From: Planctomycetota bacterium
GTDB taxonomy: Bacteria; Planctomycetota; MHYJ01; WSZJ01; JACPWG01
Length of the DNA: 30,949 bases
Direction of reading: 5' to 3'
NCBI GenBank assembly: GCA_016220045.1
Contig: JACRIP010000076.1
Span: forward strand, 1-30,949
Of the stretch, positions 1 to 3,629 are shown piece after piece. Numbering within the stretch: the stretch's first letter is position 1; the number at the start of each line of letters is the position of its first letter. Position numbers and translations under genes: made by a program. The notes under the pieces were generated by a model. The model made no database searches and was not told the DNA's origin. It saw nothing but the letters and a program-made list of their open reading frames with translations.

Positions 1-1479
1 CAGGGCGGGCAGCGCCGTCGCGGCCGCCGCGCCGCCCGGTTCGACGCCCGCGACCCCGGACGCCGGCGCCGCACCCGGCACCGCCGCCGCCGAAGTCGCC
101 GCCGCCGCACCCGGACGGCCCCCCCACGCGGGCAGCGTCTCGATCGTCATGCGTCCGCCCTGCGGCATCGCGTCCAGCGCGTTGGTGATCAGGTTGAGAA
201 AGACCTGCTCGATCTGCGACGGGTCGGCGGGACACGAGGGCAGTTCCGGCGCGAAGTGGGTGGCCAACTCGACCTTGCGCACCGACAAGCCGGGCGAGGT
301 GAAAGCGATCAGGCGCTCCAGCAGCGCGTTGATCGACACCGGCTCGAGGATCGGCACGTGGAAGCGCATGTTGTTCAGCGCTTCGCGGATGATGCGCGCC
401 AGCCGATCGATCTGGGTTTCGACGATCTTGAGGCGGCCGCGCACCGAGCCGTCCAGGCTCTCCTCGGCGGCGAGGATCTGGATGTGCCCGGAGATGCTGT
501 TGAGCGGGGTGCCGAGCTCGTGCGCCATCTGGCTCGCGAACTGTCCGAGCGAGGCGAGGCGTTCGACGTCGCCGAGGCGGCGCTGCGCGCGGAAGAGGTC
601 CTCGTTGGCGCGCGTCAGTTCGACGTTTTTCTGTTCCAGCTCGGCGGTGGCGACCTCGATCTTCTCGCGCAGCTCCTCATTGAAACGCCCGATGCGCTCC
701 ATGAGCTGTTCGTTCTCGCGATTGGCCTCACGGATGCGGCGGAGCATCTGGTTGAAATTGTCGCCCAGCCAGCCGAACTCGTCGCGCGACTTGATCTCGA
801 CCAGGGATTCCAGGTTGCCGGCCCGGGCCTGGAGCATGGCCTCGACCAGGCGCTCGACCGGGGAGTTGATCTCCTTGCGGATGTAGACGAAGAGCACGGT
901 GATGGTGATGAGGATGAGCAGGATGGCGGAGATGACGGACTGGGTGTAGGCGGAGGAGGCAGTCTTTTCGGCGTCGAGCAGGGGGATTTCGACGCGGATG
1001 GCGCCGACGACCTTGCCTTCGCGGTGGAGCGGGGCGGCGATGTCGAGGAAGCGGTCGTCGCCGCGGTAGTAGGTGCGGTAGGCGGAGCGGTCCTCCTTGA
1101 CCGCCTGGTAGTCGGCGCGATCGGGGGCGGCTTTGACCGAGCGGTCGCGGGCGGCGACGCAATCGAGGCCGCCGTCGCGCAGGCGGATGAAGACGCGGAT
1201 GTTGGAGACGCCGTGCTTGCCGACGATGAGGCGCTGGATCTCGTTCTGGAGGCTCTCGGGGTCCTCGAGGGTCGCGCCGCGCGCGATGAAGCCGTCGAGG
1301 CTGGAGACGACGAGGTCGCCGCGCCCGCGGGAGAGGTCCTCGAGCGCGTCCCGCATGTTGTTGATGTGCAGGAACGCCATCAGGAACATGCCCGGGAGCA
1401 CGATGGCGAAGACCGCCAGGACGATGCGGAGCTTGAGGTCGAAACCCTGGGTCTCGACGCGCGCGCGATAGGTTTTCAT
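1..1479 (-). CDS. Membrane HAMP-domain sensor histidine kinase (3' end runs off the left edge)
   Basis: Manual translation from ATG at 1479 (MKTYRARVETQGFDLKLRIVLAVFAIVLPGMFLMAFL...). Two hydrophobic segments, a HAMP-like region, H-box ERLASLGQFASQMAHELGTPLNSISG and N-box QIEQVFLNLITNALDAMP. No stop before position 1, so it is absent from the ORF track. Confidence 0.93.
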   Translation of the reverse strand, partial: MKTYRARVETQGFDLKLRIVLAVFAIVLPGMFLMAFLHINNMRDALEDLSRGRGDLVVSSLDGFIARGATLEDPESLQNEIQRLIVGKHGVSNIRVFIRLRDGGLDCVAARDRSVKAAPDRADYQAVKEDRSAYRTYYRGDDRFLDIAAPLHREGKVVGAIRVEIPLLDAEKTASSAYTQSVISAILLILITITVLFVYIRKEINSPVERLVEAMLQARAGNLESLVEIKSRDEFGWLGDNFNQMLRRIREANRENEQLMERIGRFNEELREKIEVATAELEQKNVELTRANEDLFRAQRRLGDVERLASLGQFASQMAHELGTPLNSISGHIQILAAEESLDGSVRGRLKIVETQIDRLARIIREALNNMRFHVPILEPVSINALLERLIAFTSPGLSVRKVELATHFAPELPSCPADPSQIEQVFLNLITNALDAMPQGGRMTIETLPAWGGRPGAAAATSAAAVPGAAPASGVAGVEPGGAAAATALPAL

Positions 1480-1631
1480 GGCCTGGTTCAATACGGGGTT
1501 ACAGTCCCCTCCCGCTCAGGGGGAGCAAAACGGGGACATGACCTGAATTCCTGGAAGGGCCGGCGATCATCGGGGAACGTCGCTGGGATTCAGGATCGTG
1601 TCCCCGTTTTGCGGCCGACTTGAACCAGGCC
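1480..1631. mobile_element. 152-bp MITE-like non-autonomous element
   Basis: Perfect 12-bp terminal inverted repeats GGCCTGGTTCAA (1480-1491) / TTGAACCAGGCC (1620-1631), flanked directly by the 8-bp direct repeat GTTTTCAT (1472-1479 and 1632-1639). Internal inverted repeat GCAAAACGGGGACA / TGTCCCCGTTTTGC. No transposase inside. Confidence 0.85.
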
Positions 1632-1639
1632 GTTTTCAT

Positions 1640-1834
1640 CTACCCCAGAGAGATCCACTTCAGGGAAATCGCGTAGTACACGAGCACCAGCCCGACGATC
1701 ACGCAGCCGGCGACGAAGACCGTGATGTGCAGGGGGCCCTCGCCGTCGAGGAAGGGCAGGAGGCGGCGCGGGATGGGCCGCGGGACGGGGCCGGGGAAGG
1801 GGCGATCGGACGGGACGTCATCGCGATCCGGCAT
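1640..1834 (-). CDS. Small (64 aa) single-pass membrane protein
   Basis: GAGGG SD-like motif before the ATG. C-terminal hydrophobic stretch LHITVFVAGCVIVGLVLVYYAISL. Starts 6 nt after the cutA stop. Confidence 0.7.
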   Translation of the reverse strand: MPDRDDVPSDRPFPGPVPRPIPRRLLPFLDGEGPLHITVFVAGCVIVGLVLVYYAISLKWISLG

Positions 1835-1840
1835 GGCTCA

Positions 1841-2218
1841 CTATCCCTCGGGCTCGGGCTCGCTCGGATGCAGGGCGGGGGGCAGGGGCACGACCGCTTC
1901 CGCCAGCCAGCCCAGGTACGGGGCGAGTCCTCCGGCGACCGGCAACGCCACGATCTCCGGGACCTGGTAGGTGTGCAGGTCCACCACGCGCGCGGCGAGC
2001 GCGTCCAGGCGGTCGGCGGTCGTCTTGATCAGGAGCAGGACCTCCTCGTCCTCGGCGATCTTCCCTTCCCAGCGGTAGATCGAGGTCACGCCCGGCAGGA
2101 TGTTCACGCACGCGGCCAGGCGCTCCTCCACGAGAGCCCGGGCGATCACCCGAGCCGCGTCGATGCCCCCGGCGGTCACCAGGACGACGCGGGCGCGCGG
2201 GGCCTCTGCTTCCGGCAT
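1841..2218 (-). CDS. cutA: Divalent-cation tolerance protein CutA
   Basis: Motifs LVEERLAACVNI, SIYRWEGKI, E-x-LLLIKT and LHTYQVPEI. Start moved to ATG 2218, which has an AAGGA SD; the track's longer start is unsupported. Confidence 0.95.
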   Translation of the reverse strand: MPEAEAPRARVVLVTAGGIDAARVIARALVEERLAACVNILPGVTSIYRWEGKIAEDEEVLLLIKTTADRLDALAARVVDLHTYQVPEIVALPVAGGLAPYLGWLAEAVVPLPPALHPSEPEPEG

Positions 2219-2270
2219 GGTCGGTTCCTTCGTACGGGAGCGATGGGCGCGCGGCCCACGGGACCTGCGC

Positions 2271-3629
2271 TCAGGCGCCGGGGCGCTGGACCAGGTCGCG
2301 CAGGGTGACCCCGGCGGTGACCTGCTTCCAGCTCTCGTCGGCGCGTTCGAGCGCGCCGTCGACGGCACGCATCAGCTCGTCCTCGGCGACCCGGAAACTG
2401 GTGCCGTGCGTGCGCACCGCTTCCAGCACGTCGCGCAGCCGGATCGTCGCCGGATCGCGCGCGGGTACCACCCCGTGCGTGGCCGACGGCCCGAGCCGCA
2501 GGATCAGCCCGGCGCCGAGCAGCCGGTCGAGCAGCTCCTGCACCAGGCGCGTCGGCAGGTCCAGCCGCACCGCCAGCCCGTCCAGCGTCGCCGGCGGCGC
2601 GCCGCGCAGGAAGTCCTGCGTCAGCGCGCAGGCGATCTTGACCGCGGCGACCTCCACGCACCAGGCGCTCGCGCGCGGCACGCGCTCGTTGCGCTTGAAG
2701 CCGCGGCGATTCTGCACCGCGAACGAGATCTGCGCGCCGGTCAGGAAAACCACCCAGCTCACGTAGATCCAGAGCAGCAGGATCGGAATGGCGCCCAGCG
2801 TGCCGTAGACCTTGTACTGCGTCACCACCTGCGTGTTGTACCACAAATACGCCCGCTTCGTAACCTCCCACACGCTGCCGGCGATCACCGCGGCCAGCAC
2901 CGCCGACCCGAAGTACACCTTGGTGTTCGGCACGAAGCTGTAGAGGCAGGCGAAAATGATCCAGACGATGAGGAGGGGCAGGAAGATCGAGATCGCGGCG
3001 GAGATCCACTCGTTGGCGAGCAGCTCCTGGACCACCGAGCGATCCATGAAGAGCGCGGTGAGGGTGATCGAGAAGCCGATGAAGATCGGCGCGAGGGTGA
3101 GCACGGTCCAGTAGATGGCCAGGCGGGCGACGAAGGGCCGGTCCTCTTCGAGGAACCAGATGCGGTCGAGGGATTCCTCGATGTCGCGCATCAGGGAGAT
3201 GACGGTCCAGGCGAGGACGAGGAAGCCGATGCCGCCGACGGCGCCGTTGTGGATATTGTCGATCGCGTCCATGATCGCGTCGACGACCTTCTGGCCGGTG
3301 CCCTGGGCGAGGTTGCCGATGAGGAAGCTCTTGAGCCGGGCCTCGGTGGCGGAGAGGGAGCCGAAGGCGCGCAGCACCGCGAAAACGACGGCGACCGACG
3401 GGACGAGGGCGAAGACGGTCTTGTAGGTGAGGGCGGCGGCCCGGGTATTCACCTCAGCCCGGATGAAACCGTGGAAGAGCAGGACGACGGAGCGCACGAC
3501 GTCGAGCAGGAAATTGACCAGCCGCGCCTCGGGGGGCGCTTCGGCCTCCCAGAGGTCGGTGTTGACCAGTTTCCAGCCGGTGCGGACCGCGTGGGCGGCG
3601 CGATCCCAGCGCTCGAGCAGCCAGGTCAT
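2271..3629 (-). CDS. YihY/BrkB-family membrane protein with C-terminal winged-helix (Rrf2-like) extension
   Basis: YihY motifs AAALTYKTVFALVP, YSFVPNT and VYGTLGAIPILLLWIYVSW; several TM segments. C-terminal LAVRLDLPTRLVQELLDRLLGAGLI...ARDPATIRLRDVL resembles an Rrf2-type wHTH. Start taken as ATG 3629 (TTG 3647 is an alternative). Confidence 0.88.
   Translation of the reverse strand: MTWLLERWDRAAHAVRTGWKLVNTDLWEAEAPPEARLVNFLLDVVRSVVLLFHGFIRAEVNTRAAALTYKTVFALVPSVAVVFAVLRAFGSLSATEARLKSFLIGNLAQGTGQKVVDAIMDAIDNIHNGAVGGIGFLVLAWTVISLMRDIEESLDRIWFLEEDRPFVARLAIYWTVLTLAPIFIGFSITLTALFMDRSVVQELLANEWISAAISIFLPLLIVWIIFACLYSFVPNTKVYFGSAVLAAVIAGSVWEVTKRAYLWYNTQVVTQYKVYGTLGAIPILLLWIYVSWVVFLTGAQISFAVQNRRGFKRNERVPRASAWCVEVAAVKIACALTQDFLRGAPPATLDGLAVRLDLPTRLVQELLDRLLGAGLILRLGPSATHGVVPARDPATIRLRDVLEAVRTHGTSFRVAEDELMRAVDGALERADESWKQVTAGVTLRDLVQRPGA

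Follow-up and report, generated by a model that had tools for sequence, protein, structure and literature searches.

A miniature inverted-repeat element of an ISL3-like family at the start codon of a planctomycetal histidine kinase gene

How can a transposable element land exactly on the start codon of a gene and leave the reading frame of that gene open? The question is raised by the window studied here, positions 1 to 30,949 of contig JACRIP010000076.1 of the Planctomycetota metagenome-assembled genome (MAG) GCA_016220045.1 (G000; 710 contigs, 81% complete). In this window a 152-bp transposable element of the miniature inverted-repeat type (MITE) lies between a gene for a small membrane protein and a gene for a histidine kinase. 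The MITE was inserted into the first 8 nt of the kinase coding sequence, and it is linked by association to a parent insertion sequence (IS) of 1.7 to 1.9 kb. Our reading as a whole, to which we assign a probability of roughly 0.88, is that a MITE of an ISL3-like family, derived from this parent IS, was inserted at the kinase start and that expression of the kinase would be attenuated as a consequence.

Insertion into the first 8 nt of the kinase gene

The element and the sequences that it touches are arranged as follows.

1..1479, minus strand: histidine kinase gene (HAMP, HisKA and HATPase_c domains), ATG at 1479-1477, running off the contig start
1472..1479, unstranded: target-site duplication copy 1, GTTTTCAT, found as a repeat in the sequence
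1480..1631, plus strand: MITE of 152 bp, recognized by its copies, its duplications and its match to the parent IS ends
1480..1491, plus strand: left terminal inverted repeat, GGCCTGGTTCAA, read from the sequence
1495-1504: subterminal motif GGGGTTACAG, after the left terminal inverted repeat
1499..1639, minus strand: 46-codon open reading frame (ORF), from the duplicated ATG through the element to the TAA at 1501-1499
1525..1551, unstranded: inner hairpin arm 1, nearly invariant among copies
1585..1612, unstranded: inner hairpin arm 2, nearly invariant, holding the right-end subterminal motif
1605-1598: subterminal motif GGGGACAC, 13 nt inside the right end, an arrangement shared with the parent IS at its 3' end
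1620..1631, minus strand: right terminal inverted repeat, the reverse complement of GGCCTGGTTCAA, read from the sequence
1632..1639, unstranded: target-site duplication copy 2, GTTTTCAT, found as a repeat in the sequence

The 8-bp duplication and the inverted ends, which are 12 bp long and perfect in the window copy, lie where the first-pass annotation of this DNA had placed them. Of the two MITE ends, the left corresponds to the parent IS at its 5' end and the right to the IS at its 3' end, and the operon transcript reads the MITE (1480..1631) in antisense. On the minus strand, duplication copy 1 reads ATGAAAAC and consists of the functional kinase start codon plus 5 nt. The ATG of copy 2 (1639-1637, minus strand) directly adjoins the TAG (1642-1640) of the upstream 64-aa ORF, so the abutting stop and start described earlier are indeed there. 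The internal inverted repeat of about 27 bp reported at the same time is also real (1525-1551 with 1585-1612) and is formed by the pairs 1525-1541/1596-1612 and 1542-1551/1585-1594. No transposase gene is present in the 152 bp; their sole ORF is the 46-codon read-through frame, which is out of frame with the kinase and whose TAA precedes the kinase ATG by only 19 nt.

In the ancestor, ATGAAAAC stood directly after the TAG of the small membrane-protein gene, giving TAGATGAAAACCTATCG as the element-free junction, and the element was inserted into these 8 nt. Both the upstream stop and the complete kinase frame survived because the staggered cut duplicated the 8 nt.

An empty site in relatives, which the first-pass annotation had proposed to look for, was found in G001, a member of the sister genus and, of the genomes searched, the only further one from the taxonomic family of the window. 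There the gene order is the same (brkB/Rrf2, cutA, small membrane gene, kinase), but the element is absent: the TAG of the small gene is followed by 6 nt and then by GTG AAG ACC TAC. The kinase N terminus, MKTYRA, is conserved from residue 1 in the G001 ortholog, and the insertion therefore struck the first 8 nt of the coding sequence, whose start was rebuilt by the duplication. A metagenome search for the filled or the empty junction, in a collection from which records near this genome may be missing, returned 0 matches; the comparison is one with the G001 junction, not with an allele of the same species.

Further evidence for an insertion comes from the window's own genome, which holds about 40 copies of the family with 78 to 91% identity to the window copy. 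Among the full-length copies (147 to 163 bp) with both flanks available (n = 30), 14 are bordered by perfect, copy-specific 8-bp duplications, while 5 show one mismatch and another 5 show two mismatches. Control 8-mers, taken as the next 8 nt outward, always differed at 3 or more positions (median, 6). Copies with different 8-bp flanks, for which a search had been suggested, are thus abundant, and together with the duplications and the element-free junction in G001 they bear out the original proposal of a MITE with an 8-bp duplication on the kinase start. According to a crude GC3-based ORF call, only 1 of the 31 full-length copies falls within a long ORF. AT is enriched in the duplications (54% GC versus 70.6% for the genome), and in the set with no or one mismatch their first position is G or C in 19/19 cases. 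ATG or CAT occurs in only 2 of these 19 duplications, as counted by eye. We therefore rejected the idea that the MITE family targets start codons; the start-codon position of the window insertion is incidental.

The consensus of 31 copies is 152 nt long. Conservation reaches at least 90% in the ends (positions 1-13 and 140-152) and in the inner arms (44-72 and 106-135), and the loop and positions 14-43 are variable. Position 4 of the ends co-varies between both ends, being C/G in 28 copies and A/T in 6. The inner hairpin, by contrast, displayed no covariation among copies: what is conserved is its sequence, without compensatory changes, and selection on an RNA structure was rejected on this ground. 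The window copy is 89% identical to its nearest neighbor copy and differs from the consensus at 14 positions; it is not young.

These data also speak to the alternative that no insertion took place and that the 152 bp belong natively to the operon, as a conserved leader with a regulatory role or as a structured RNA (for instance, an attenuator or a riboswitch). Such a leader would account for the very stable fold and for the high conservation of the inner arms. It would, however, have to be missing from the syntenic G001 junction, where the shared 152-bp leader that the first-pass annotation had named as the competing expectation is not found, and it would have to coexist with some 40 dispersed copies carrying copy-specific 8-bp duplications. 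The inner hairpin lacks covariation, and an Rfam scan of 1300-1900 gave only a sub-threshold chance match. We consider a native leader extremely improbable.

Five G000 contigs (C612, C455, C150, C667, and C393) end inside a copy of the 152-bp element, indicating that the family causes fragmentation of this assembly, as is typical of repeat-induced breaks. On another contig (C302:5116-5390), a family copy with GGCATGG-type ends, flanked by GTGCGCGC and GGGCGCGC, is split by an internal insertion of about 125 to 135 bp and is possibly a nested insertion.

The parent insertion sequence and its transposase

A transposase with matching ends, which had been called for as a check, was found in other phyla. 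In four full-length elements (L127, L204, L205, and L206), a transposase-like gene is enclosed by the ends seen in the MITE. The first of them (L127:4806-6582; 1,777 bp) is bordered by a perfect duplication, AAACTCTG, and has a single ORF of 515 aa (protein P0003). L206 (1,892 bp) likewise has a perfect duplication, AAATATCT, and L204 and L205 measure 1,778 bp and 1,725 bp, respectively.

Family ends consist of GGC(A/C)TGGTTCAAA and a subterminal GGGTAACA-type motif, and they go together with an 8-bp target duplication. In the parent IS the two ends are asymmetric, the GGGTAACA motif being located 3 nt inside the 13-nt end at the 5' side and 13 nt inside it at the 3' side. The MITE shows the same asymmetry: its left-end consensus equals the 5' end of the IS at 22/24 positions, and GGGGACA stands 13 nt inside its right end, where it falls within the conserved inner arm. 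The inner arms would thus be conserved because they hold sequence needed for mobility, namely the 3'-end subterminal motif; most likely the transposase binds there, and selection for mobility has preserved them. By association, the family is mobilized in trans by a transposase of about 515 aa, with an N-terminal helix-turn-helix (HTH) and a DDE-type core, encoded by an IS with these asymmetric ends. A relic of the parent gene is present in G001. It is truncated at its 5' side and retains the last 135 codons with 48% identity (E value, 8.5e-35); a GGCCTGGTTCAAA end facing inward is found some 110 nt away. Solo end sites on G000 contigs C166, C207, C265, C466, C692, C130, and C7 had no transposase-like context.

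P0003 has only a weak N-terminal HTH_Tnp_1 match. Its relatives number at least 6,786 in 90% clusters, mostly on contigs of 1.7 to 2.0 kb and named "hypothetical" or "transposase-like," and at least 3,281 related clusters were counted at 50% identity (E value of ≤1e-3). In an alignment of 39 diverse family members (A2), E167, D220, D241, H244, E445, and N474 are invariant and D166 is nearly so. We compared the A2 profile with a profile built from five true ISL3 transposases of this class. The two aligned over 275 columns with an hhalign probability of 94.8% (E value, 5.3e-8), and the DE, D, and D-x-F-H columns were in register. Ten of the 39 members weakly match PF01610 (best E value, 3.9e-6), and in atlas neighbor clusters 17 to 26% of the members carry this domain.

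Several traits are shared with the ISL3 family, namely, imperfect inverted ends starting with GG, AT-enriched targets, a 1.7- to 1.9-kb partner with a single transposase ORF, the aligned DE, D, and D-x-F-H columns, and the 8-bp duplication, which is the classical length for ISL3 (PMC7643977). Unlike ISL3 members, however, the partner encodes a transposase that exceeds the compared ISL3 proteins (392 to 424 aa) by about 90 aa, its ends consist of GGCMTGGTTCAAA plus GGGTAACA instead of the GGCTCTTC.CAAA of the canonical ISL3 element of G000, and P0003 itself matches neither PF01610 nor an NCBIfam ISL3 model. The ISL3-type transposition suggested in the first-pass annotation can hence be kept in the sense of a distant, ISL3-like group, to which the ends, the 8-bp duplications and the profile comparison point, but not as a match to the Pfam ISL3 model. 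Judging from these sequences, the parent appears to represent a divergent ISL3-like group rather than a proven ISL3 member. A literature search with the end sequence returned no relevant paper, the matches being unrelated eukaryote and virus papers.

Could a different transposase mobilize the MITE, be it a canonical ISL3 enzyme or one of the IS6, IS256, IS1595, or IS5-type enzymes that make 8-bp duplications? G000 does contain a canonical ISL3 element (C91:513-2167, L036) with a 424-aa transposase (PF01610; E value, 1.5e-73), whose ends share the pattern GGC.....TCAAA with the MITE, and no homolog of the 515-aa protein was found in that genome. The ends of this element, GGCTCTTCTCAAATTCGAGTGG and GCCTCTTCGCAAATCCGAATGG, nevertheless match the 13-nt MITE end at only 8 positions (by eye) and lack the subterminal motif; its flanking 8-mers match at only 5/8 positions. 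It was rejected as the MITE partner because of its different ends. ISL3 copies elsewhere in the class do not have the MITE end either, and G001 has about 190 end sites yet no PF01610 match. As for the other families, no IS6 transposase was found in G000, neither G000 nor G001 yielded an IS256 or IS1595 enzyme, and DDE_Tnp_1 loci lack the ends. Four independent full-length elements, on the other hand, have the exact ends around the 515-aa gene. Mobilization by another transposase is in our view quite unlikely, and we retain the 1.7- to 1.9-kb IS as the parent.

Predicted effect on the kinase

The genes upstream of the kinase are transcribed in the same orientation.

1640..1834, minus strand: small gene whose 64-aa product has a single hydrophobic helix (by eye), conserved upstream of the kinase in G001
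1841..2368, minus strand: cutA (CutA1 family), the next gene upstream, start codon uncertain

An exact look-up of the 64-aa protein gave no match. None of the 493 codons available interrupts the kinase frame, in line with the intact ORF described before, and its product is 73% identical to the G001 ortholog along its whole length. In the C-terminal part of the kinase (1-60, minus strand), a long insertion rich in Ala, Pro, and Gly follows the beginning of the HATPase_c domain; the G001 kinase has an even longer one. The window ends inside this insertion, so the completeness of the catalytic domain cannot be judged here.

According to our model, the TAGATG stop/start coupling of the ancestor would have given way to 160 nt of RNA that folds strongly. 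For the sense transcript of the element region, the predicted minimum free energy is -82.5 kcal/mol (z-score, -5.8), and the 12-bp terminal stem has the kinase AUG immediately at its foot. Upstream of this AUG (…ACCAGGCC), no Shine-Dalgarno-like motif is found at a usable spacing, as read from the sequence. Given the position at the stem foot and the lack of a Shine-Dalgarno-like sequence, independent initiation at the kinase AUG would be weaker. In agreement with this, the predicted energy for opening positions -15 to +12 at the kinase start is 16.1 kcal/mol with the element versus 7.7 kcal/mol without it.

The duplicated AUG retains the ancestral coupling context (…GGGGTAGATG). Ribosomes re-initiating there would cross the hairpin while translating 46 codons and terminate 19 nt short of the kinase AUG, from where translation may be relayed to the kinase via termination and re-initiation. 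A stop-to-start distance of 19 nt is short enough for re-initiation in bacteria. The 46-codon peptide reported in the first-pass annotation thus corresponds to a real ORF that is out of frame with the kinase, but "dead-end," as it was called there, is too strong a term for a frame that stops so close to the next start. The uncoupled or attenuated kinase that it had suggested is still a matter of inference: folding predicts a less accessible start, but the nearby end of the short ORF would allow re-initiation. The net effect predicted from these models is probably attenuation rather than loss.

The TAA of the 46-codon ORF arises from a base private to the window copy and is the only stop in a frame that would otherwise extend across the kinase gene for about 300 codons. 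Of 36 copies, 16 have a stop somewhere in that phase, and in 4 of them, the window copy included, it is at the same codon. We considered the TAA as a compensatory mutation and rejected this: with a stop in phase in 16/36 copies and about 3.5% of substitutions creating a stop, its occurrence is not significant.

This bears on a further alternative, namely, that the kinase is effectively silenced, an intact-looking pseudogene in waiting for which the 46-codon ORF is indeed a dead end. Loss of the coupling, a start region that is harder to open, new upstream sequence without a Shine-Dalgarno-like motif at proper spacing, and a short-ORF stop that bears no sign of selection would all fit such a state. 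The 493 open codons and the 73% identity to the ortholog along the whole length argue against it. The element copy, moreover, is not young, and damage would be likely in a gene silenced by it, though the timing cannot be fixed. The 19-nt distance, in addition, would allow re-initiation. We therefore regard silencing as unlikely, but as the most serious of the alternatives, and favor attenuation.

MITEs that alter expression are known from bacterial operons, with the Correia elements of Neisseria, ERIC, and RUP as examples. Like the window element, these are short, non-coding, hairpin-forming, multi-copy, intergenic, and co-transcribed, and they potentially affect mRNA folding or translation. 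They differ in their ends, their duplications (TA for Correia), and their parent transposases. A promoter, terminator, or processing function is neither shown nor predicted for the window element.

Several observations weigh against the reading given at the outset. Two of the four full-length IS copies, L204 and L205, lie between flanks that do not match. P0003 matched none of the Pfam DDE and NCBIfam IS/transposase models, PF01610 included, and the ISL3 link is drawn from one profile-profile alignment, with an ISL3 profile of five sequences, together with weak matches. In G000, searches with the protein and with the family profile found no autonomous copy, implying that mobilization there is historical or that the autonomous copy is unassembled. 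Scans of 1300-2500 for sigma-70 promoters and intrinsic terminators detected none. Finally, the fold and the translational relay are predictions.

The wider family of ends and its significance

Of 401 genomes sampled in the phylum, only 4 are enriched in the 13-nt end, with 40 sites in G000, 165 in G001, 18 in G022, and 35 in G198 and 0 to 3 sites in all others; the control, for which the pattern was reversed, gave at most 2 matches in any genome. A longer common end consists of GGCMTGGTTCAAA, a few bases, and then GGGTAACA. In a scan of one genome per prokaryotic species, this extended end was present in at least 119 stretches, mostly from Planctomycetota, with Latescibacterota, Desantisbacteria, Verrucomicrobiota, Cyanobacteria, Chlamydiae, and Gammaproteobacteria among the other hosts.

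The richest genome is G001 (9.1 Mb). Its end sites bound at least six size classes of non-coding elements, of about 127, 153, 188, 276, 303, and 314 bp, whose interiors are unrelated and whose ends are common (GGCATGGTTCAAA; e.g., L047:458-645, L049:219-532, L050:212-399, and L051:203-329). The pairs examined there have perfect or near-perfect 8-bp duplications, except for the 127-bp pair of L051, whose flanks do not match. This genome represents a burst of MITE diversification in which the only transposase trace is the relic described above. A kilobase-sized end pair on its contig C43 was rejected as a single element, as it comprises two separate 188-bp MITEs.

MITE-sized end pairs with duplications also occur in G022 and G198. 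Candidates for a parent in these two genomes were rejected: the contig-end copies in G022 are truncated ends beside ordinary genes, the long ORFs that adjoin solo ends in G198 encode ankyrin, transglutaminase, and the like, and the weak ISL3 matches in G198 lack the ends.

Of the end pairs at the fetched loci, 32 are flanked by duplications that differ at no more than one position, and 30 of these measure 115 to 261 bp. The remaining two are the 1,777-bp IS with the 515-aa ORF (L127) and a 2,975-bp segment without a transposase from a Gemmataceae MAG (L132:1436-4410), which has the same inverted ends, a perfect duplication (GAATTCGG), and a weakly DHOR-like protein. A further segment of 4.66 kb in G001 (L048:562-5225; G001:C74:53961-58624) has the same ends, a duplication matching at 7/8 positions (CCAAGTGG/CCACGTGG), and no transposase. 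Its cargo is a Ser/Thr kinase fused in frame to a reverse-transcriptase-like start (by eye), and it also holds a weak RluA-like pseudouridine-synthase fragment. Both segments possibly represent cargo carriers of this family that are non-autonomous.

Taken by itself, the finding in the window is ordinary biology: a MITE entered an operon, and its duplication happened to preserve a start codon. It provides a clean case from nature in which a coding sequence can tolerate an insertion without harm thanks to an 8-bp duplication, as well as a testable case in which translational coupling would be replaced by a short relay ORF. The family is also of practical relevance, as its ends break MAG assemblies such as that of G000.

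The most interesting by-product is the unannotated, ISL3-like parent group. The evidence is evenly balanced on whether the parent stands for a deep-branching ISL3-like IS clade that is widespread, especially in Planctomycetota, and effectively unannotated, with Pfam and NCBIfam transposase models missing it. Such a clade would be marked by a 24-nt asymmetric end signature and by a derivative superfamily of MITE classes of about 115 to 315 bp and kilobase-sized, transposase-less cargo carriers. Since standard annotation misses the parent transposase, thousands of such IS are labeled "hypothetical." A profile made from A2, combined with the end signature, would let annotators recognize both the IS and their MITEs.

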